Shown: piece by piece, positions 1 to 8,447 of the stretch
Layout: each line of letters opens with the position of its first letter
Position numbering within the stretch: the first letter of the stretch is position 1
DNA from: a virus
Taxonomy: Duplodnaviria > Heunggongvirae > Uroviricota > Caudoviricetes
Length of the DNA stretch: 8,447 nucleotides
Direction: 5' to 3' (one strand)
IMG/VR virus record: IMGVR_UViG_2734482772_000013
Span: 1-8,447 of that record
The notes under the pieces: model-generated
What the model was told of the DNA's origin: nothing
Seen by the model: the letters and a program-made list of their open reading frames with translations, nothing else
Database searches by the model: none
Position numbers and translations under genes: made by a program

Positions 1-2013
1 GTCAAAACCATTTTCGCGGGCGCTGTCTTCCGCTTCCGGTTTACGTCTTACCAGCTTCCAGTTATCCGGATGCGTGCACACACGGGAGGATTCCCCGATG
101 AATGGCGACCAGATCCCGTAAATCTGTACACTCTGTTCGCCGTAATCGTTCAGCTCATCTGCGAGGTCGTAGGCTGTGCGAATCAGGTAGTCCTTGCGCG
201 GAACAAGTACGCCACCCTGTTTTTCAATGTAGGTGGCAAAACATCCGGCATCAGCGGCAGCGAGTACCGCATCCATTGCGTCATCCTTCAGCCGTTGCGG
301 GCCTTCCGGGTTGCGTGCCATCTGGCTGGCAAGGCGGCGCAGTTCACGCCACACCTGACGGGAGGGGATGCCAAAGAACTGGAACTGGCGGACCCGATGA
401 AGGCGCGCCCAGCCGATGGCGCGCTCCACGCTCTCGGCCATTGATTTTCCGGTTTCGTGGTCAACGCGTGGTTTGCCCGTTTTCGGGTCGATTCCATCCA
501 CGGCGCGGCTGTCCAGGTTTTTTCCGATGTAGGTGGCGATGTAGCTGGTTGGCGTGCCTTTGGAGCCGTCGACGTACTCCACCTTAAAGCGCGGAGTAAT
601 ATCATTGCCCAGCTCGTGGCGGTCTTCCTGAATGGCAATATCGCGGGTGATGGCCACGATGCTGTCGATTTCTTCCGGATGAGCAAAGACCATCATATGC
701 CAGTGCACGGTGCCGTCATGGTGAGGCTCCACCGTGCGGATGCCATACCAGCGCAGGCCGTCGCGGTTCAGTTTTTTGCGGACCGCCGCAAAAAACGTGT
801 TAACCAGGTAATCGCTGGAGTCGCGCATGGTGGCCCCGTTCCATTTGGGATTCGGATGACCGTTCTCTGTTGTGGCGTGGTATTTTGACGGGCAGGTGAC
901 AGTCAGAAACACCGCTTTGTCGCCACGGGCTTCGGCCAGAAGTTCCAGTCCCTTCATGGTGGCCATCATTTCTGCCTTACGGTGAACCGGGTTACTTACT
1001 CCCGCGTAATACACTGTCTCGAGATCAATCGTGAAACCGTCTTCGTTTTCCAGTTCGAAGCTCTTCAGGAAGTCGCGGGTTTTCTCGCGCTGTGCGCGAA
1101 ACTCGCTTAACGCGTCCTGGCTCAGATAGGGTGATGTTTTTCTGGAAACCAGACAGGCGGCGCGGAGTTGTTCTTCTCTCCACTCACAACGTAACAGCCA
1201 CAGTTTGCGTTTCCACCAGTCCGCACAGGTCAGGCGAAGGATTGCGCCCGGCAGCAGTTCCGTATCCGGTTCGTTCCTCCGGTCTTTATCTGTTGTCAGT
1301 GCGTCATAATGTGGAGGCATAGCGTGCAGGTGTAACGCCATGCGGGCCAGCATCTGATACGCCTTCAGCGTTACATCCATGGTCAGTTCGCCATCAGTCG
1401 CGCCAAAGCCATCGCAGAGTTTTTCGAAGGTGCTGCTGAACATCGCTGCCGTCATGGTGGCCAGCGTCTGTATCTGGTGTTTGTTGAGCTGCGGCAGGTA
1501 AAGCAAATCGTCCAGGCGTTCGCGTCCGGCAAGGGAGCGATAACCCGGTGTCAGCCAGCGTCCGTCAGTGCGATCCAGACGTTCGAATATTTTGCGCAGG
1601 GTTCCGCGTGCATAGCGTTCCGCCTGCCAGCTCTTTTTGCCTTTCCGGCGATCGGCTTCCTGTTTTTTGCGCAGGAAGGAGAGGTGGCGAATAAGCGGAT
1701 CGCGCAGATAGTACGGCAGCAGGCGGAGCGAGGCCATGGCTTCATCCACCGCGCCGCGTGCCTGTTTTCTGGCGTCTCCTGCCAGTGTGATGGTTTTGTC
1801 CTGTTTTTCCTGTGCATCCAGGCTTTTATTAATCAGGTTGCCCAGCGGCGTGGCGGAGAACGCCGCATCAGCCATTTCCTGGCGGCGCTCATTCTCTGCC
1901 CGGTAGGCATCCAGCCAGGAGGAAAGCGCGGATTCAGGAGTGGGGATCCCCGTTCCTTCACGCCCCACTGCGTGGCGCGGTTGTTGCCAGTCCCTGATGT
2001 ACTCTGCCGTCAT
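1..2013 (-). CDS. Rolling-circle replication initiator / replication endonuclease (P2 gpA-like, HUH superfamily), partial: N-terminal ~671 aa, C-terminus beyond window start
   Basis: Hand translation of the minus strand from ATG at 2013 stays open to position 1 (671 codons). It contains TVHWHMMVF (HUH metal-binding motif, codons at 720..661) and YIATYIGK (catalytic Tyr pair). Absent from the ORF track probably because there is no in-window stop. The plus-strand ORFs listed here are antisense artefacts. Confidence 0.85.
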   Translation of the reverse strand, partial: MTAEYIRDWQQPRHAVGREGTGIPTPESALSSWLDAYRAENERRQEMADAAFSATPLGNLINKSLDAQEKQDKTITLAGDARKQARGAVDEAMASLRLLPYYLRDPLIRHLSFLRKKQEADRRKGKKSWQAERYARGTLRKIFERLDRTDGRWLTPGYRSLAGRERLDDLLYLPQLNKHQIQTLATMTAAMFSSTFEKLCDGFGATDGELTMDVTLKAYQMLARMALHLHAMPPHYDALTTDKDRRNEPDTELLPGAILRLTCADWWKRKLWLLRCEWREEQLRAACLVSRKTSPYLSQDALSEFRAQREKTRDFLKSFELENEDGFTIDLETVYYAGVSNPVHRKAEMMATMKGLELLAEARGDKAVFLTVTCPSKYHATTENGHPNPKWNGATMRDSSDYLVNTFFAAVRKKLNRDGLRWYGIRTVEPHHDGTVHWHMMVFAHPEEIDSIVAITRDIAIQEDRHELGNDITPRFKVEYVDGSKGTPTSYIATYIGKNLDSRAVDGIDPKTGKPRVDHETGKSMAESVERAIGWARLHRVRQFQFFGIPSRQVWRELRRLASQMARNPEGPQRLKDDAMDAVLAAADAGCFATYIEKQGGVLVPRKDYLIRTAYDLADELNDYGEQSVQIYGIWSPFIGESSRVCTHPDNWKLVRRKPEAEDSARENGFD

Positions 2014-2019
2014 AGTGAT

Positions 2020-2385
2020 TTACTTCGTCATGCCATTCAGGGTGTCGCGGCAGACTGTAGCCAGCCGCTGAATTTCCAGCACGGTGTCTTCTGTGTCGGC
2101 ATGGCGATGTGTGATGCGGATGCTGTCGGCAATCACATCGACGATTGCAGAGGATGGGCGCTGGTAAATGCCAATAACGGACGGTGTGCCGCCTTCAATG
2201 CGGTAAAGCCTGTAATTTCCCTCGTGGCTGTCAATCATGTAGCGACCATCAATAACAATCTTTCCGTCAGCGAGCTGCGGTACAGGCAGGGATTTCAGGT
2301 ACATGTCATAACGTTCACGCACGCGAACGGCAAGATCACGCTCTGTGTTGAGCAGGTATTCAAGAAAGTCGTTGGCGAGAATCAT
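2020..2385 (-). CDS. Hypothetical early-operon protein, 121 aa
   Basis: ORF track; SD-like AAGAGGA about 10 nt upstream of ATG; stop 6 nt before the A-gene start; position equivalent to the small ORFs preceding gene A in P2/186. Confidence 0.6.
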   Translation of the reverse strand: MILANDFLEYLLNTERDLAVRVRERYDMYLKSLPVPQLADGKIVIDGRYMIDSHEGNYRLYRIEGGTPSVIGIYQRPSSAIVDVIADSIRITHRHADTEDTVLEIQRLATVCRDTLNGMTK

Positions 2386-2457
2386 TGCGGCAATCCTCTT
2401 GATACAGATGTGCGAAGGCCTCCCGCCGCAAGGTGCAGGAAAGGCCCGGAACAGGAA

Positions 2458-2688
2458 TTAATGGAGTTTGTTTTGCTGCTGGATGAGCTGCTGAAGCTCG
2501 CGCAGATCATCCGCCAGATAGCTAAATACTGCGGCGGAGTAGGCGTTTGACAGCACGTGGCTGTGCTCATGTGACATGTTGATGAACATGATACGAGCGA
2601 CGCGTGATGCGCGGTAAAGTCTGCGGTTGATTTCAGTCTGGATGTGACGACGCTCCGCGATAGCGCGGTGCTGTTTGCGGTTTGCCAT
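2458..2688 (-). CDS. Hypothetical small basic protein, 76 aa
   Basis: ORF track; good SD (AAAGAGG) about 9 nt upstream of ATG at 2688; first gene after the non-coding terminator region. Confidence 0.55.
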   Translation of the reverse strand: MANRKQHRAIAERRHIQTEINRRLYRASRVARIMFINMSHEHSHVLSNAYSAAVFSYLADDLRELQQLIQQQNKLH

Positions 2689-2866
2689 GGTGTGGCCTCT
2701 TTGGTTGTAAGTTTTGAAAACTCACCATCCAGAGGTGGAAAACTCGGGGTGGTGAGACGTACAGGGTTTCCACAACCGGCAACCAAAGAACCCGGCCCGA
2801 CCGAAGTCGGCCCCATACGCCCCACCATAATTCGTGTGCGAAAAAGACGTGGCGATACGGTACGCA

Positions 2867-2890
2867 CAAAAAAACCGCTGGCGCGGTTGT
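2867..2890 (-). terminator. Putative rho-independent terminator for minus-strand transcription
   Basis: Read on the minus strand: AACCGC-gcca-GCGGTT stem-loop running directly into a T-run (plus strand shows A-run 2868..2874 then ccgctggcgcgg). Confidence 0.45.
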
Positions 2891-3027
2891 GCGCTTTGGT
2901 TGTCAGCGGGGTGGAAATCCCGGCACCCGTTTTATGAGGTGCAGCGGAAATGTAACCTGACTGATTGCGGCATGGCAAGCGGTTTTTTTGTGAGAACGGC
3001 ATACTAAAAAAAATCCTGATACTGCTC

Positions 3028-3052
3028 CGGCCAGCGATTTTCACTGGCCGGG
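3028..3052 (-). terminator. GC-rich hairpin immediately 3' of the SPFH gene stop; possible terminator or mRNA-stabilising stem-loop
   Basis: CCGGCCAG-cgattttca-CTGGCCGG 8-bp perfect stem starting 6 nt after the stop codon at 3058. On the minus strand a T8 run follows only about 13 nt later (3006..3013 on plus), so it is not a canonical terminator geometry. Confidence 0.4.
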
Positions 3053-3057
3053 TTTAA

Positions 3058-3888
3058 TTACTTCACCGGAACAAACGGAACAGCGGTGTTGCTGGTCATG
3101 TATTGCGGCAGCGTGCCGTTCCATTTGTTGATTGCTTCCAGCTCCATAACGCCGGGATTCTGGCGCAGAGCTTCACCGCGTAAACGAATGGCGTCGGCTT
3201 CAGCCTGGGCTTTTGTGCGAATGGCATCAGCCTGTCCGGCAGCTTCTGCGCGCAACATGTTGGCTTCTGCTTCGCGTTGCTTGACTTCCTGTTCGCGTTG
3301 CAGGGTTTTCTGGTTTGCCGTGACTTTGGCGTTAATGCTGTCGATAACGGTTGGCGGATATTCCGGTTTACCGACATAAGAGAGGCTCATGACCTGAATG
3401 CCGATAGGTGTCATTTCTGACTGAATGTCTTTAAGTGCTGAATCCAGCAGTTCAGACTTGCCACCGTCGATAAACTTATCGGTGGTCATTTTGCTGGCCA
3501 GTCGGTTGAGTGCATCGGCGATCTTCTGGCGCAGGTCAGTGTCGGTAATGTCATCCACGCCTTTGCGGTAGGTCTGAAACACTGTGGTAACTTTGGATGG
3601 ATCAACCTTGTAGGCCACACCGATGTGATAGCCGATGGTTGTGCCGTCACTCATCTGAAAGCTGAACGGCTCATCGTAGGTCTTCATTTGTTTGAAGGTC
3701 GGGAAGATGTAAACCTCGGTATTCCAGCCAGTCCAGTAGCGGCCAACGCCAACCACTTCGCCAACGCCTTTGTCGTCGCCCAGCTTGTTGACTTTGATGC
3801 CCACATTACCTGGCTCAACGCGATCGCAGCCAACCAGCAGGATGGCGGCAAAAAGCGGGAGAATCTGAAAGAGTTTGAATTTCTTCAT
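3058..3888 (-). CDS. SPFH / band-7 (prohibitin-flotillin-HflK/C family) domain lipoprotein, 276 aa
   Basis: N-terminal signal peptide with lipobox (LLVGC); core with the SPFH-like pattern GNVGIKVNKLG...EVYIFPTF; Ala/Glu-rich coiled-coil C-terminus (AEANMLRAEAAGQADAIRTKAQAEADAIRLRGEALRQNP) as in HflC/prohibitin C-terminal regions. Start overlaps the upstream stop (ATGA). Confidence 0.85.
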   Translation of the reverse strand: MKKFKLFQILPLFAAILLVGCDRVEPGNVGIKVNKLGDDKGVGEVVGVGRYWTGWNTEVYIFPTFKQMKTYDEPFSFQMSDGTTIGYHIGVAYKVDPSKVTTVFQTYRKGVDDITDTDLRQKIADALNRLASKMTTDKFIDGGKSELLDSALKDIQSEMTPIGIQVMSLSYVGKPEYPPTVIDSINAKVTANQKTLQREQEVKQREAEANMLRAEAAGQADAIRTKAQAEADAIRLRGEALRQNPGVMELEAINKWNGTLPQYMTSNTAVPFVPVK

Positions 3889-4088
3889 TGTTTGATTTCC
3901 TTGATGTACTTACTGAAAAGGCGAACAACGCCTGCCGGGTACAGCATGGCAATGAAAATGCCCAGCAATACCAGGAAGGAGCTGTCTGATGAAATCATTC
4001 GGGGGAGTAGTCCTGCATACAGAATGAGAGAGACGAGGACGCATACCAGCGCCCACATGTATGCGCGAAACCAGGTCTTTTTGTTCAT
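3885..4088 (-). CDS. Small integral membrane protein, 67 aa, two predicted TM helices; partner of the SPFH lipoprotein
   Basis: Two hydrophobic stretches (WALVCVLVSLILYAGLL and FLVLLGIFIAMLYPAGVV); SD AAGGGA about 8 nt upstream; stop overlaps the SPFH start (ATGA coupling). Confidence 0.65.
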   Translation of the reverse strand: MNKKTWFRAYMWALVCVLVSLILYAGLLPRMISSDSSFLVLLGIFIAMLYPAGVVRLFSKYIKEIKQ

Positions 4089-4099
4089 GCTGCGATCCC

Positions 4100-4396
4100 T
4101 TACTGGTTAAGGAAAAAATCAAAAACGTTATTGATGCGTTGTAATAACTCGCGCTGTATTGCTTCCGGTGTTTCTGATTCACCTGGTGACTCCAGCGTCG
4201 CGCAAAAATCCTTGATTTCATGATGGAGCGTCAGGCGAATGGCAGGGGCCGTGGTTCTGGCGTGCTCCAGCTCATCCAGCAGTGCCAACACCACTGACGG
4301 TTGTAAGCTCACGCGAGATGGTAGTGATTCATGGAGGGGTATTCTTTGCACGGCAGTCGCCAGTTCGCGTAGTTCCTGGTGGTTGATGATGCTCAT
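4100..4396 (-). CDS. Hypothetical acidic protein, 98 aa
   Basis: ORF track; SD AAGGAA about 8 nt upstream; ATGA overlap with the upstream gene's stop. Confidence 0.6.
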   Translation of the reverse strand: MSIINHQELRELATAVQRIPLHESLPSRVSLQPSVVLALLDELEHARTTAPAIRLTLHHEIKDFCATLESPGESETPEAIQRELLQRINNVFDFFLNQ

Positions 4397-4638
4397 GCTC
4401 TGGCTTCCTTCAGTAACTGGTTAAACATATTGGTAAGTGGATTGCCGCACCCGAACGGCATCGGGTTTACCTGGTAAGAGAAGCGACCACCTGTTTTGCG
4501 CTCTTTTCTTATGACTGAACCGCTACGCCAGAGTCGGCGTAACTCCGCATTAATAGCTGTGGTTGGGGTATTCAGTGCTGCGGCGATTTCTCCACCGCTA
4601 CACCCCGGATTGGCGGCGATATAGTCCAGAATGGTCAT
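4393..4638 (-). CDS. Winged-helix DNA-binding protein (putative transcriptional regulator), about 81 aa; alternative start at 4644 (83 aa)
   Basis: Helix-turn-helix then wing pattern (GGEIAAALNTPTTAINAELRRL ... VIRKERKTGGRFSYQV). ATG at 4638 overlaps the upstream stop (ATGA) and has better SD spacing (AGGAG 8 nt upstream) than ATG at 4644. Confidence 0.6.
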   Translation of the reverse strand: MTILDYIAANPGCSGGEIAAALNTPTTAINAELRRLWRSGSVIRKERKTGGRFSYQVNPMPFGCGNPLTNMFNQLLKEARA

Positions 4639-4838
4639 CTGCATGACTCCTGTACCTGTCGGATAAGGTTCACCCGCACCACGTTGGTGGCGCAGAAGTA
4701 AGTGCCGTCAGTGAGGTAGATGTGGTGTGCATCCTTTTCTGAACGGTGTTTGTCGATTGTGGTAATCAGGCGTTCGTCGACTTCGTATTCACGTCCTCTG
4801 GAGGTAAAACGAACGACAGGAAAATGCTTAATTGCCAT
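4635..4838 (-). CDS. Hypothetical protein, 67 aa
   Basis: ORF track; strong SD AAGGAGG just upstream of ATG at 4838; first gene after an 86-nt AT-rich gap. Confidence 0.6.
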   Translation of the reverse strand: MAIKHFPVVRFTSRGREYEVDERLITTIDKHRSEKDAHHIYLTDGTYFCATNVVRVNLIRQVQESCR

Positions 4839-4924
4839 TACGCCTCCTTGGCGTGTGCGAATACCTCCGCGAATGCGGATTGTTTTTACATTTTCTTATT
4901 TAACCTGTGGTTTTATTTGCTCTG

Positions 4925-5038
4925 TTATTCGCCAGTGAAAAAGCGTTCAATCTTTTTTACTGAATGAATAATTCGCATAATCCCAATGGCGCAGGCCACC
5001 GAAATAATCAGAACAAACCATGAGATAAATATACTCAT
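4925..5038 (-). CDS. Small hydrophobic peptide, 37 aa (MSIFISWFVLIISVACAIGIMRIIHSVKKIERFFTGE), single predicted TM helix; absent from the ORF track
   Basis: Hand-translated minus-strand ORF; ATG at 5038..5036 overlaps the TGA of the upstream 80-aa gene (ATGA coupling); ends TAA at 4927..4925. Composition is a hydrophobic helix followed by a basic tail. Confidence 0.45.
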   Translation of the reverse strand: MSIFISWFVLIISVACAIGIMRIIHSVKKIERFFTGE

Positions 5039-5277
5039 GCGATATTCCCCAGCTTATACGGTTCAATGTGTTCCCCGCATTCTGCGGCACAGATCAGCTC
5101 GGAAAGTTCGTTAAGTGCATCCAGATCATCAGCGTAAAAAGCAACGTCATACAAACTCCGGATTGCCCTGGTCAATGAGTCACGGGCTGCACGTTCAGCA
5201 TGAGCGCCTGATGCACTTAAGCGAAAATAAAATCGTTCAAGTGCTTTGTTAATGAGAGTTTTATATTCTTTGCCCAT
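5035..5277 (-). CDS. Hypothetical protein, 80 aa
   Basis: ORF track; SD AAAGGG about 7 nt upstream; 11-nt spacing from the upstream gene. Confidence 0.6.
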   Translation of the reverse strand: MGKEYKTLINKALERFYFRLSASGAHAERAARDSLTRAIRSLYDVAFYADDLDALNELSELICAAECGEHIEPYKLGNIA

Positions 5278-5288
5278 CGCAACGCCCT

Positions 5289-5576
5289 TTAATCTGCTTT
5301 CTGAATTTCAGCTTCTGAATCCATACAAATAATTTCGATATAAGGTTCATCGCCATTAGCCTGGCGTGCCTTTTCAGCTTCACTAATGATTTCTCGTACG
5401 GTCTGGTACGGAAGTTCCACAAGCAGTCGCGTGCCGTTCAGATAAACGTAAGTGGCTTCGTTGACTCCGTTTTTACCCGCCGGAGCCACTCCATCAATAG
5501 CGGATGCGCGTAATAACAGTTCACCGCGAAAATCAATAAAACGGATAAATACACCTTGTGCATGCTCTTTGGTCAT
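5289..5576 (-). CDS. Hypothetical protein, about 95 aa (ORF track gives a 115-aa version from 5636 that would overlap the upstream gene by 50 nt)
   Basis: ATG at 5576 is preceded by AGGTG and lies 10 nt after the upstream stop at 5587; chosen over the longer ORF for operon packing. Confidence 0.55.
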   Translation of the reverse strand: MTKEHAQGVFIRFIDFRGELLLRASAIDGVAPAGKNGVNEATYVYLNGTRLLVELPYQTVREIISEAEKARQANGDEPYIEIICMDSEAEIQKAD

Positions 5577-5586
5577 AAAGCACCTG

Positions 5587-5925
5587 TTATAAATCAGCCT
5601 GTTTAATAAAACTTTGTCCGCGAAGCAGACGATCAACCGTGCGTAGTGCTTCGTATAATGTGAAATCCTGCCCGAACTGATTGTCGCCGCAGCTCAATGC
5701 AAAAATGCGGTTTCCGGTAAACGGATTGCGTGGGCATTTGTGGACCACGATTCCAGCTTTCTCAATCAACCAGGCATGCTCGCCGATTTGTTTTACTGGG
5801 TAGCCATCCGGCGTTGCGTGTGTTTCGCTCAGGCTGTAGCGAGAGCTGCTACGTGATGCGCTGGTAGCGAAACGGTTAGCGTGGCGTTCTGTTCCGGTGC
5901 GAAAATTACGGCGTTGCTTCAGCAT
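5587..5925 (-). CDS. Hypothetical protein, 112 aa
   Basis: ORF track; AGGTG SD about 10 nt upstream; starts 14 nt after the cox-like stop. Confidence 0.6.
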   Translation of the reverse strand: MLKQRRNFRTGTERHANRFATSASRSSSRYSLSETHATPDGYPVKQIGEHAWLIEKAGIVVHKCPRNPFTGNRIFALSCGDNQFGQDFTLYEALRTVDRLLRGQSFIKQADL

Positions 5926-5939
5926 AAAATGACACCTCG

Positions 5940-6218
5940 TTATTTTGTCATCTGCACGTATTTCTCTGCGCTCCTGATTGTTTTCAGGAAAAGAGCGAAG
6001 AGATTTACTGTGCGTCTTGAGTTCTTTTCACCCTGGTTGATGGGAATCGAACCTCTGTCAGCCTGTCTTTTCACTGTGTTAACAGCTTGTTTGGTACGCT
6101 TTGCGTAATCTTTCAGGCTTTCTTCAAGTATTGGTAATCCATGCTCATCGCGGTATGGGTAGAACGCCGCTAAACGCTCAATGTCTTCCTGTTCGTATGT
6201 ATTCAAGACCTCTGCCAT
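5940..6218 (-). CDS. Cox/Apl-like small DNA-binding regulator-excisionase, 92 aa (first gene of the early operon)
   Basis: Position (first gene divergent from the repressor) and size (P2 Cox is about 91 aa); putative HTH segment LKDYAKRTKQAVNTVKRQADRGSIP. Function assigned by synteny and motif, not by a measured alignment. Confidence 0.55.
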   Translation of the reverse strand: MAEVLNTYEQEDIERLAAFYPYRDEHGLPILEESLKDYAKRTKQAVNTVKRQADRGSIPINQGEKNSRRTVNLFALFLKTIRSAEKYVQMTK

Positions 6219-6309
6219 GATGTGATAACCTGTTCTATCTGTGGTTATTTGTTACCGAAAGTCGTCGGTAGACTACTTTTGAGATTAATTTAGTCGTCTG
6301 GAGACCACC
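6219..6309. promoter_or_regulatory. Divergent immunity switch region (expected early and repressor promoters plus operators)
   Basis: 91-bp gap between divergent cox-like and C-like genes; 14-bp direct repeat AGTCGTCgGtAGAC (6260..6273) and AGTCGTCtGgAGAC (6292..6305), 12/14 identical, 32 bp apart. -35/-10 elements could not be assigned confidently. Confidence 0.5.
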
Positions 6310-6621
6310 ATGTCAAGTGGGTATGAAAAAAAACTGAAAGAGATACGGAAGAGTGAAGGGTTAACTCAAGTTGAGTTTGCCGATGTTACCGGGATAAATC
6401 TCGGAACTATAAAGAATTATGAGAGTGGCAAAAGAGAGGTTGGTTTAAGCGTTGTCGATCGCGTAATTAATTCTAAAGATTTCGAAAAGTACACAATGTG
6501 GCTTATGACGGGAAAAACAAATGAGGCTGCAGGGCAGATCAGTCCGTCTCTCTCCCCTGATGGGCCAGAAAACACATCGCCTTCTCAAAAACTCCGCAAA
6601 ACTGGCACACAGCCCGGCTAA
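6310..6621 (+). CDS. Immunity repressor, XRE-family HTH (P2 C-type), 103 aa
   Basis: HTH_XRE pattern (LTQVEFADVTGINLGTIKNYESGKR); size and position immediately upstream of int on the same strand as in P2 (C about 99 aa); GGAGA SD 7 nt upstream. Confidence 0.85.
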   Translation: MSSGYEKKLKEIRKSEGLTQVEFADVTGINLGTIKNYESGKREVGLSVVDRVINSKDFEKYTMWLMTGKTNEAAGQISPSLSPDGPENTSPSQKLRKTGTQPG

Positions 6622-6670
6622 TCATGGAGCGCTGGGGGCATGGTGGTCTTGTAACGCTGGGGTTTCACGA

Positions 6671-7648
6671 ATGAGCATAAAATCAATTCCTGGAGGGTAT
6701 CTTCTTGACATGCGCCCAGAGGGGCGTAAAGGCAAACGCATTCGCAAAAAATTTAAAACGAAATCGGATGCAGTTTTATATGAGCGGTGGGTGCTGGCGC
6801 AACAGCATAACAATGAGTGGAAAGGAAACTCCATTGATCGCCGCCCGCTGTCAGTGCTTATTGACTTGTGGTGGAAATACCACGGCCAGCTAATGAAGTC
6901 AGGGCATAACACGCGCCTTAAATTGCTGCGCTTGAGTGAGGCAATGGATGACCCGTGCGTGCATAAACTTAATACAACGATGCTCACCGAGCTACGTGTG
7001 TCCAGGATAGAGCAGGGGATACAGCCCAGCACCATAAATCGAGAGATTGGGGCGTTAAGCGCGATGTTTAGTGCGCTCATCTCTTCCGGCCATTTCCTTA
7101 ACGATAACCCCATTCAAGGTCTGAAAGGAATGAAGGTTAACGAGCGCGAAATGGGATATCTGAGTAAGTCTGAATGTGTTCAGTTGCTGGATGCACTGGC
7201 TGAAAATCCCGATGAGCGGCTGGCTGTCGAAATTCTTTTGTCGACCGGGGCACGATGGGGCGAGGTAGCGGCACTGGAGCAGCGCCGCGTTCTTCATTGT
7301 CGAATCATTTTTTCAAAAACGAAGAACAGCAAAAACCGTACCGTTCCTATTTCTGAAAGCCTGTTTGAAAAGATCAAAAAACGGGGCGGGAAACTGGTGT
7401 TTCCGACGCTGGATTATCCATTGGTTCGCGATGTCATCAAAACGGTCGCACCTGATGTTCCTGACGGCCAGGCTGTTCATGCGCTGCGCCACACCTTCGC
7501 CAGTCATTTCATGATGAACGGCGGCAATATTCTGACACTCCAGAAAATTCTGGGGCACGCAAAGATTCAGACAACGATGATTTATGCCCATCTTGCGCCG
7601 GATTACTTGCAGGATGCGGTGAGATTTAATCCACTAGGAGGTGCTTAA
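6671..7648 (+). CDS. int: Tyrosine site-specific integrase (P2/186 family), 325 aa
   Basis: C-terminal catalytic motifs (TGARWGE; HALRHTFASHFMMNGG; LQKILGH; MIYAH with the catalytic Tyr). N-terminus MSIKS...GRKGKRIRKKF resembles P2-family Int as I recall it. The 50 aa upstream in the 6521 ORF are not integrase-like and overlap the repressor gene, so start is placed at 6671. Confidence 0.95.
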   Translation: MSIKSIPGGYLLDMRPEGRKGKRIRKKFKTKSDAVLYERWVLAQQHNNEWKGNSIDRRPLSVLIDLWWKYHGQLMKSGHNTRLKLLRLSEAMDDPCVHKLNTTMLTELRVSRIEQGIQPSTINREIGALSAMFSALISSGHFLNDNPIQGLKGMKVNEREMGYLSKSECVQLLDALAENPDERLAVEILLSTGARWGEVAALEQRRVLHCRIIFSKTKNSKNRTVPISESLFEKIKKRGGKLVFPTLDYPLVRDVIKTVAPDVPDGQAVHALRHTFASHFMMNGGNILTLQKILGHAKIQTTMIYAHLAPDYLQDAVRFNPLGGA

Positions 7649-7650
7649 GA

Positions 7651-8013
7651 ATGATGCATCCTTTAGATAAACTTAAAGAAATGGCAACGCTCGATAATTT
7701 TGCGCGTTTTCTCAATGAGTCGTCTGCGAATGAAAAATGTTTGTCGTGTGGCGATACGGATATGTACATGTATTTGACGAATATTGTTGAGGTGGGGCCT
7801 GAGCCGAAAACTGCTGAGGAGTGTAATTTAGGCACTCTTGTTATGCTTGATTATATTGGCCCATTTACTGGGTATCCTGGATATGAGGGACATGATCGGG
7901 AAAATATCCATAACTATGAATTCAGACTTACCTGCAACAGATGTGGGTTTGTTCATCGTTACTCGGCCCGAGCTTTTATGAGCTGGGTAGGTAAGCAGGG
8001 TGATGACAAATGA
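7651..8013 (+). CDS. Hypothetical protein with two CxxC pairs (putative zinc-ribbon), 120 aa; cargo gene coupled to int
   Basis: Strong SD (AGGAGGTG) 7 nt upstream of ATG, which lies 2 nt after the int stop; Cys pairs CLSC and CNRC about 62 residues apart; no family recognised. Confidence 0.65.
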   Translation: MMHPLDKLKEMATLDNFARFLNESSANEKCLSCGDTDMYMYLTNIVEVGPEPKTAEECNLGTLVMLDYIGPFTGYPGYEGHDRENIHNYEFRLTCNRCGFVHRYSARAFMSWVGKQGDDK

Positions 8014-8447
8014 TGCCGGACAGCACTCCTATTTTACCGTTCAGAAAAAAGAAAGAGAATGCCTATAATGTATCCAACAACCAAGTGACAGGAAGTGGTA
8101 ATGATGGAGGCGATGGCATGAATGACGACCTTGAACGGCGAGTTAGTTGCCTGGAAAGTGATGTAACTGAAATCAAAAACAACCTGATTACTCTCACCAC
8201 GAGAAGCGAATCCTTTGCCACCAAATTTGATGTACTGGAGATTCGTGAAGGGTTGCGGCTTGAGATGGCAGAATCGCGCCAATCCCTGAAGTCTGAGATG
8301 GCTGATTTGCGCCAGTCTCTGAAAGTTGAGATGGCTGAGCATCGTACTGAACTTCAGAAATCATTTGCAAATCAGACCTGGCTACTCACAGGTATTGTCC
8401 TGTCTGCGATGGCTGTGCTTGTGGCTGTTGTTACTGTTATTAAGTAA
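8010..8447 (+). CDS. Coiled-coil, C-terminally membrane-anchored protein (XhlA/DUF1640-like architecture), 145 aa; possible alternative start at 8118 (109 aa)
   Basis: ATG overlaps the upstream stop (ATGA); C-terminal hydrophobic helix WLLTGIVLSAMAVLVAVVTVIK; central tandem 11-residue repeats; the first 36 residues are low-complexity and an in-frame ATG at 8118 has a GGAGG SD 7 nt upstream. Confidence 0.7.
   Translation: MMPDSTPILPFRKKKENAYNVSNNQVTGSGNDGGDGMNDDLERRVSCLESDVTEIKNNLITLTTRSESFATKFDVLEIREGLRLEMAESRQSLKSEMADLRQSLKVEMAEHRTELQKSFANQTWLLTGIVLSAMAVLVAVVTVIK
8262..8360 (+). repeat. Three tandem 33-bp repeats inside the 8010..8447 CDS encoding hendecad repeats EMAESRQSLKS / EMADLRQSLKV / EMAEHRTELQK
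   Basis: Direct reading: repeat units start at 8262, 8295 and 8328, each beginning gagatggc. Confidence 0.8.

Follow-up and report, generated by a model that had tools for sequence, protein, structure and literature searches.

A paired gene cassette exchanged between the integrase gene and the attachment site of P2-like Escherichia coli prophages, and its possible role in phage exclusion

The window analysed here is the whole 8,447-nucleotide stretch of a Caudoviricetes record in IMG/VR (IMGVR_UViG_2734482772_000013, positions 1 to 8,447). On direct reading of its letters, the right third is filled by four co-directional open reading frames (ORFs) on the + strand, encoding a C-type immunity repressor (C), a tyrosine integrase (Int), and two small proteins, C1 and C2 (genes c1 and c2; Table 1), and the gene order and coordinates given in a preliminary description of this DNA were all borne out. 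We read the region, with a confidence a little short of even, as the lysogenic C-int string of a P2-like prophage that has been extended by a mobile c1-c2 cassette located between the int stop codon and the Int-binding arm of the phage attachment site (attP). It is also possible, although the balance leans somewhat the other way, that c1-c2 constitutes a two-component phage-exclusion or abortive-infection module. Chromosomal prophages of E. coli are 95–99.7% identical to the region, and the surrounding genes of these relatives are of the P2 type (replication endonuclease A, portal, terminase, and ogr).

In classical P2, the attachment site directly follows int. The last letter of the window (8447) is the end of the c2 stop codon, and the attachment site therefore lies outside the window. 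It was mapped by comparing the ihfA-proximal and btuC-proximal junctions of the P2-like prophage residing between ihfA and btuC in E. coli 165 with the empty site of strain K-12, in which ihfA is joined directly to btuC and only a single copy of the core is present. The att core is the rho-independent terminator of ihfA, GGCCGCTCTGCGGCCTTTTTTCTTTTCA, and the core GGCCGCTCTGCGGCCTTTTTTCTTT(T)CA is common to attL and attR of strain 165 and attB of K-12. On the int side, the core begins 126 bp past the c2 stop codon in lysogens. The P2 layout, with no gene between int and the attachment site, is not seen here: two genes, 797 bp in all, separate the int stop codon from the att arm. Because the core maps downstream of c2, c1 and c2 are prophage cargo rather than host genes, lying on the phage side and within the att boundaries of the element. 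The preliminary description had itself named an att core between int and the cargo as the arrangement that would turn the two genes into host genes, and this arrangement is excluded by the comparison of attL and attR with the empty site. The alternative that the real att is located between int and c1, which would make the two genes part of the host or leftovers of some other element, has nothing in its favour except the textbook expectation for P2 and is vanishingly improbable: the c1 start codon is located just 2 nt past the int stop codon, no copy of the att core was found in the window even when up to 3 mismatches were allowed (and hence no hidden att between int and the cargo), and the position of the core beyond c2, together with its single copy at the empty site, has already refuted it.

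The content of the int-att interval was examined in 5426 complete E. coli genomes. The int gene of the window is present in 302 of them, almost all copies being at least 95% identical. Matches run on through the cargo in 82 of these 302 genomes, whereas the rest break off at window positions ~7632–7647, within the last int codons; the megablast matches of about 220 genomes end at these positions. The window-type pair was found in 86 genomes, with both genes present every time. A second type of pair was identified in O55:H7 strain DEC5B, in which an unannotated zinc-ribbon ORF overlaps the int stop codon and is followed by a gene for a coiled-coil membrane protein; this pair is of the c1-c2 type but only about 27% identical to that of the window. 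It was matched in 39 genomes, 15 of which contain at least 80% of its length. In another 158 genomes, the slot contains a single unrelated gene for a 131-aa protein, as in strains E2348/69 and O104:H4, where it starts 10 nt after int. This gene, the commonest alternative occupant of the slot (4170–4565 in locus L005 of E2348/69 and 4455–4850 in locus L006 of O104:H4), has a GTG start codon, and its product has no match in Pfam or PADLOC. Different content between conserved flanks in close relatives, a property of phage morons, is thus found at this site, and the junctions are sharp. The proposal of the preliminary description that the cargo was horizontally acquired is supported by this presence/absence and allele polymorphism behind an int that is at least 95% identical. 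It had also taken AT-richness as a sign of acquisition; the GC contents of c1 (0.42) and c2 (0.45) are indeed lower than that of the replication gene A (0.575), but the argument is weak because C (0.44) and the early genes (0.44–0.48) are just as AT-rich.

The left breakpoint of the slot is located just after ...AGATTTAATCC, homology between the window and E. coli 165, E2348/69, O104:H4, DEC5B, and Klebsiella being unbroken before and divergent after this sequence. As this breakpoint falls within the end of int, each allele brings its own C-terminal Int tail and its own ribosome-binding site. The right breakpoint is ATGATCCACAAAGTGACC..., about 105 bp ahead of the core, and the ~105 bp leading up to the core, which are conserved across alleles, probably contain the arm sites of Int. 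Slot contents are swapped by recombination at two places, the last codons of int and the att arm. A 21-codon hydrophobic ORF (MIHKVTTSLLFVV(C/G/D)CVFVCL) is common to all alleles between the slot and the core, outside the window (14265–14330 in locus L001 of E. coli 165, 4564–4629 in L005, and ~5390–5455 in L007), and in two of the three types of slot its ATG overlaps the stop codon of the cargo gene before it. The three changes seen between alleles in this ORF are all non-synonymous, including Gly/Cys/Asp at one position, and its DNA contains repeated CCACA motifs; it may represent Int arm-binding sites rather than a third gene. The closest cargo, 99.7% identical, is that of strain GF31, whose repressor (7660–7971 in locus L053, compared with 6310–6621 in the window) differs from those of strains 165, O104:H4, and DEC5B. 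The early genes of GF31 differ from those of the window, and its int region is not among the best matches to the window. Recombination of the cassette thus appears to be independent of the immunity region.

A pattern scan of IMG/VR with the c1 alignment identified 45 loci, 44 of which extend far enough to be evaluated. In all 44, a c2 homologue is located directly after c1, with overlapping or abutting stop and start codons, and the pairing holds where c1 is just 25–30% identical to that of the window. The organization C-int-c1-c2 followed by the prophage end is found in 33 loci. Three loci (L028, L030, and L048) belong to P2-related phages and have the order repressor, two unknown ORFs, c1-c2, and int. 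Six have no int within 6 kb, five of them residing inside the tail/baseplate clusters of other myoviruses and one beside lysis genes; the one tail-cluster locus that was scanned (L043) has a strong terminator right after c2. In the remaining three loci, there is no int match by which to place them. The pair is also found in a Serratia prophage with a different att site (HTH-orf-int-c1-c2-host, with 8-nt and 4-nt overlaps; HTH, helix-turn-helix), in a Klebsiella P2-like element (int-c1-c2), and at the edge of a Citrobacter prophage. Against the phage records of GenBank, megablast returned one weak integrase match and nothing else, and tblastn returned no match for c2 and four distant Klebsiella matches for c1. 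The constant pairing across the loci indicates that c1-c2 is a mobile cassette whose genes always travel together, not two independent genes. A role of the pair in integration or excision was considered and rejected, since the pair is also located far from any int in tail clusters and is swapped for an unrelated gene.

C1 is an acidic protein (pI 5.1) in which C30, C33, C95, and C98 are invariant among 16 sequences sharing 25–90% identity, as are L21 and W112. Its AlphaFold2 (AF2) model is a confident alpha+beta fold (pLDDT 78, pTM 0.70) in which the two conserved CxxC knuckles are predicted to be brought together, as in a generic zinc ribbon. No specific zinc-ribbon family of Pfam was matched at threshold, a sequence profile search of the PDB gave nothing at E <= 1, and Foldseek against BFVD gave just generic TFIIS- or Lar-like zinc ribbons (E >= 0.008); there is no significant match among solved or viral predicted structures. 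An exhaustive HMMER search of 1.8 billion representatives yielded just 16 C1 relatives, some of which are spurious Cys-rich matches, and the family is therefore small; the few relatives with an organism name are all from Enterobacterales. Within the window-type allele group, the ratio of non-synonymous to synonymous substitution rates (dN/dS) of c1 is 0.28–0.77, with changes clustered in the loop between the zinc knuckles, and that of c2 is 0.02–0.08 from M37 onward; both genes are under purifying selection.

In C2, residues 1–34 are disordered in the AF2 model and are followed by two helices (36–66 and 72–144). The disordered N-terminus, which contains a conserved F-P-x-x-R/K motif, precedes a Gly-rich linker and a GCN4-like helix, and a C-terminal hydrophobic segment is present in every aligned homologue. 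The most conserved stretch of the family is RSESFATKxD: K72 is invariant in both alignments, and among the closer alleles R65, S66, E67, S68, and D74 are invariant and F69, A70, and T71 nearly so. This stretch contains the motif FATKFD, which corresponds, with an aromatic first residue, to the beta-layer consensus [aliphatic]-A-T-K-[polar]-[D/E] described in trimeric alpha/beta coiled coils and in DUF1640 membrane proteins (Hartmann et al. 2016, PMC4786415), and C2 combines such a motif in its stalk with a membrane anchor. A C2 profile aligns FATKFD to the MATKDD layers of PDB 5apz, with a marginal E-value (3e-4) that partly reflects ordinary coiled-coil similarity. By analogy with DUF1640-type beta-layer coiled coils, the C2 stalk would be a parallel trimer. 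The Serratia allele contains three tandem copies of the motif. The copy number of the 11-residue repeats varies among alleles, the indels being whole repeats, and the length of the cytoplasmic stalk is therefore variable.

C2 may start at either of two sites. The 109-aa form starting at M37 is the one most widely annotated in public data (P0021, at least 1000 contigs); M37, like the Gly-rich residues that precede it, is almost invariant among the alleles, and G-rich or Shine-Dalgarno (SD)-like bases precede M37 in all six alleles examined. The long ORF, starting at or over the c1 stop codon, has no interruption in any of the divergent alleles examined and encodes the conserved F-P-x-x-R/K motif, because of which the c1/c2 overlap is probably real. 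Both isoforms may be made, as with the dual starts of holins.

In profile searches, the C2 protein of the window scored 10.8 bits (E 0.45) against DUF1640 (PF07798; cut-off, 33.5 bits) and the DEC5B allele 28.7 bits (E 1.5e-6). As both scores are below the threshold, C2 is termed here DUF1640-like rather than a member of this family, although some C2 alleles are labelled ‘DUF1640 domain-containing protein’ in RefSeq. Against XhlA (PF10779; cut-off, 34.7 bits), there was no match for the C2 protein of the window, whereas the DEC5B allele scored 16.3 bits and the product of the 70-aa gene after c1 in Klebsiella phage ST101-KPC2phi6.1 scored 29.6 bits; XhlA is also the best structural match of C2 in BFVD (Foldseek, E 0.79). 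These matches, together with the cassettes located in late operons or beside lysis genes, would be explained if C2 served the phage's own life cycle at the membrane, for example as a helper or regulator of lysis like XhlA or by tethering phage processes to the membrane. This is quite unlikely, however, because all of the XhlA matches are below threshold and because the cassette of P2-like prophages is joined to the repressor-integrase string, a long way from the lysis genes. The cassette is also dispensable, one unrelated gene replacing it in the 158 genomes with the same int, and the presence of an allele of ~27% identity in the same slot behind a near-identical int would be unusual for a core lytic function.

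At the other end of the string, C faces a Cox-like gene across a 91-bp control region, and a Pe-like promoter on the - strand (6316–6287) overlaps the C start codon. This arrangement is a P2-type switch, a repressor with an HTH domain facing a Cox/Apl-like gene and a tyrosine integrase gene lying downstream on the same strand. The real start of int is the ATG at 6671, not the start of the longest ORF at 6521, and the resulting length matches that annotated in E. coli. The stop codon of int is TAA (7646–7648). The strong SD sequence reported earlier for the gene after int is AGGAGG at 7636–7641, in the final codons of int and 9 nt ahead of the c1 ATG, and the reported overlap of the two cargo genes likewise holds, the c1 TGA (8011–8013) overlapping the c2 ATG (8010–8012) in an ATGA sequence. 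Every variant of the slot abuts or overlaps the int stop codon, so that neither a terminator nor an intergenic promoter would fit. Promoter- and terminator-like matches at 5900–8447 are no commoner than in shuffled sequence (four promoter-like matches compared with 3.6 +/- 1.9 expected), no site of either kind is present on the + strand between C and the c1 start, and no terminator or promoter signal above chance was found between C and the end of c2. A terminator-like hairpin inside c1 (7817–7839) was dismissed because it contains 3 GC pairs, its T tract is poor, and the number of such sites is within chance. In a lysogen, the att core is the first strong terminator on the + strand after c2 and the only one after the operon.

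Given the spacing of the genes and the lack of a convincing terminator, the simplest reading is a single C-int-c1-c2 transcript from the repressor promoter, Pc. The cassette, with no promoter of its own here, would be translated by coupling, through the SD sequence inside int for c1 and the ATGA overlap for c2, and the transcript would end at the att-core hairpin, i.e. the rho-independent terminator of ihfA. From such a transcript, both proteins would be made in the lysogen. It is unlikely that the cassette instead has a transcript separate from that of C-int, started by a promoter in the 3' portion of int or inside c1, and is thereby uncoupled from the repressor promoter. Two promoter-like sites on the + strand (7829–7857 and 8040–8069; 9–10 of 12 matches) and the presence of the cassette in other genomic settings without int upstream are consistent with such a promoter, but the number of sites is at chance level, both lie inside c1 or c2 past the c1 start, every slot allele is joined directly to the int stop codon and has its SD sequence inside int, and the upstream spacer of 80–100 nt seen in the tail-cluster contexts is missing here.

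It is through the genes expressed along with its prophage repressor that a lysogen presents itself to the outside, and this location is the classic one for conversion genes. The membrane protein could accordingly act in lysogenic conversion apart from phage conflict, altering envelope physiology, stress tolerance, or virulence. A second membrane cargo pair in the early region of the window (genes for an SPFH/Band-7 lipoprotein and a 67-aa membrane protein) and the range of hosts, which are diverse commensal and pathogenic E. coli, fit such a role. It is nevertheless rather improbable: the cassette encodes no signal peptide or periplasmic domain, only a single C2 residue is predicted to protrude beyond the membrane, searches revealed no likeness to known virulence or envelope factors, and rapid allele turnover and the fast-evolving C1 suit conflict genes better.

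The exclusion or abortive-infection reading of c1-c2 is based on four circumstantial observations. Conflict genes are typically found in such a slot and in such positions in phages; behind a near-identical int, the slot is occupied by very divergent alleles in some genomes and by an unrelated gene in others; the cytoplasmic partner evolves fast whereas the membrane partner is conserved (dN/dS up to 0.77 in c1 and <=0.08 in c2), as expected for a sensor/effector or antitoxin/toxin pair; and P2-like phages wire the pair to the lysogenic string in two different ways. In the mechanism that we propose, the variable cytoplasmic C1 would be a specificity or sensor subunit, or an antitoxin-like restraint, controlling the conserved membrane-embedded C2 trimer, and C2 would either block the entry of a superinfecting phage or collapse membrane integrity upon infection. 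In its most specific form, which is doubtful, c1-c2 would be an anti-phage system of two genes, not recognised before, that is carried by temperate enterobacterial phages. A hypervariable sensor with a zinc ribbon would gate a DUF1640-like membrane effector that is trimeric and tail-anchored, has a beta-layer, and possibly exists in long and short forms.

The same asymmetric dN/dS would be compatible with a toxin-antitoxin addiction module that stabilises the prophage or the hotspot and is not anti-phage, C2 being a small membrane toxin and C1, encoded upstream and evolving faster, its antitoxin. Two small overlapping genes with a labile-looking acidic protein first and a membrane protein second, their strict co-occurrence, and the presence of a small membrane toxin of the Hok/Gef type at the opposite prophage end in strain 165 would all fit. 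Type II modules are, however, compatible only in gene order, overlap, and asymmetric rates: C1 lacks the DNA-binding domain typical of type II antitoxins, and the cassette leans on a foreign promoter here rather than on autoregulation. With no similarity to toxin-antitoxin families in Pfam, NCBIfam, or PADLOC, an addiction module is improbable, although it overlaps abortive-infection systems and is thus not fully exclusive of phage exclusion.

Several points weigh against phage exclusion by a cassette of the lysogenic string. PADLOC-DB v2.0.0 gave no match to C1 or C2 even at E <= 1 (and coiled-coil noise only for the divergent alleles), Pfam and NCBIfam scans of both proteins gave nothing above cut-off, and no solved or viral predicted fold matches either of them informatively. 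C2-type partners resemble XhlA of lysis cassettes at a sub-threshold level, and one locus is located beside lysis genes. Cassettes in late tail operons point to lytic expression, which is superfluous to a pure lysogen-defence model, and an internal promoter within int or the cassette is possible. Residence in a hotspot is only guilt by association, and a 2026 survey places just 3% of the known P2 defence systems in the int-att slot (bioRxiv 10.64898/2026.02.27.708500).

Table 1. Features of the C-int-c1-c2 region and of the encoded proteins (window coordinates).
Feature	Position	Strand	Remarks
Cox-like ORF	5940-6218	-	phrog_575, E 8e-7
C-type immunity repressor, 103 aa	6310..6621	+	First gene of the rightward lysogenic string; HTH_3 (Pfam), E 6e-10; phrog_147, transcriptional regulator, E 4e-34
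Tyrosine integrase, 325 aa	6671..7648	+	Int_N (Pfam), E 1.9e-28; Phage_integrase (Pfam), E 2.7e-20; phrog_1, integrase
Left junction of slot	7632..7650	+	Last ~5 int codons differ between alleles; holds AGGAGG of c1 (7636-7641) and int stop codon
c1, acidic zinc-ribbon protein, 120 aa, predicted cytoplasmic	7651..8013	+	CLSC, aa 30-33; CNRC, aa 95-98; fast-evolving partner
c2, predicted tail-anchored inner-membrane coiled-coil protein, 145 aa	8010..8447	+	Start overlaps c1 stop codon; phrog_9415, function unknown, E 4e-38
c2, possible internal start M37	8106..8120	+	GGAGG, 8106-8110; ATG, 8118; gives 109-aa form
c2, beta-layer motif FATKFD, aa 69-74	8214..8231	+	At the break between two predicted helices
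c2, 11-residue repeats, aa 85-117	8262-8360	+	EMAESRQSLKS / EMADLRQSLKV / EMAEHRTELQK
c2, C-terminal transmembrane anchor, aa 126-144	8385..8441	+	Kyte-Doolittle maximum 2.65; one residue beyond

The rest of the window contains further features on the - strand. The left end of the window cuts into replication gene A, leaving an open frame of 673 codons (1–2019) with a GC content far above that of the remaining early region. The segment at 2458–2942 looks like a P1/P7-style antirepressor module controlled by a c4 antisense RNA, located in the early operon just upstream of gene A: an isrK small RNA (2868–2942; Rfam, 64 bits) and a C4 antisense RNA (2745–2832; Rfam, 80 bits) were detected, followed by an ORF of the ‘Derepression protein family’ (2458–2688) and then by an ORF for a 121-aa unknown protein (2020–2385). 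The SPFH/Band-7 pair (3058–4088) consists of the gene for a 276-aa lipoprotein (Pfam, E 1e-30; lipobox LLVGC) and an overlapping gene for the 67-aa hydrophobic protein (3885–4088). As this pair is missing from the equivalent regions of E. coli 165, GF31, E2348/69, O104:H4, and DEC5B, the int-to-primase region is another variable slot. In strain 165, the gene for a Hok/Gef family toxin (10761–10901 in locus L002) is located between the other att junction and ogr, and the opposite prophage end therefore also bears small membrane-protein cargo.

A literature search found no description of the c1-c2 pair. What appears to be new is the cassette itself, with its strict pairing, its spread across phage types, and the nature of its two proteins, together with the architecture of the slot (the exchange of the Int tail, the SD sequence inside int, and the att core as a terminator). 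The slot is cleanly delimited, from the last int codons to the att arm, and probably borrows the promoter of the immunity operon along with the host terminator that forms the att core, and the compact, always-paired cassette spans several lineages of Enterobacterales phages. Should c1-c2 act in phage exclusion, a small new system would be added, and beta-layer membrane proteins of the DUF1640-like kind would gain a first role in bacteria; otherwise, the pair remains a well-defined case of cargo trading by P2-like phages at the int-att hotspot.

C2 shares with DUF1640/CCDC90-like proteins (PF07798), for which we know of no bacterial function, a coiled-coil stalk with a beta-layer motif and a C-terminal membrane anchor, but it differs from them in its sub-cut-off score, its shorter length, its phage origin, and its constant pairing with a zinc-ribbon protein. 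With XhlA of the lysis cassettes of Bacillus prophages, it has in common a small coiled coil, a C-terminal anchor, and its encoding by temperate phages; the similarity is sub-threshold, however, and c2 belongs to a lysogenic string rather than to a holin-endolysin cassette. In phage lambda, rexA-rexB are co-transcribed with cI, and RexB is polytopic. The likeness of c1-c2 to Rex would be confined to the proposed logic, two genes accompanying the immunity repressor and specifying a cytoplasmic and a membrane component, whereas no link to Rex was found, the proteins are unrelated in sequence, C2 is predicted to be single-pass and tail-anchored, and the cassette is located downstream of int.

The location of the slot is already known, since an int-att hotspot of P2-like phages has been described in preprints of 2024–2026. 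In these sources, the int-att interval is a minor accessory/defence hotspot of P2-like prophages (bioRxiv 10.64898/2026.02.27.708500), and a third P2-like hotspot lies between a tail protein and CI (2024 preprint, bioRxiv 10.1101/2024.10.15.618418); elsewhere, attP-int-switch has been treated as one block (PMC3448106). The hotspot surveys score known defence systems, whereas c1-c2 is not recognised by PADLOC-DB v2. The precise breakpoints, the joining of the cargo to the int stop codon, and the att core as a terminator, which come from the present analysis, were not found in the passages of the surveys that were consulted. A related arrangement is the defence hotspot between cI and int in the K139-like P2-related Vibrio phages (Rousset et al. 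2022, PMC9122126). In the window, the cargo follows int, the host is Escherichia, and the cargo is not a recognised system; yet in both cases the cargo lies within the repressor-integrase string, and loci L028, L030, and L048 place c1-c2 exactly at the position of the K139-like hotspot.

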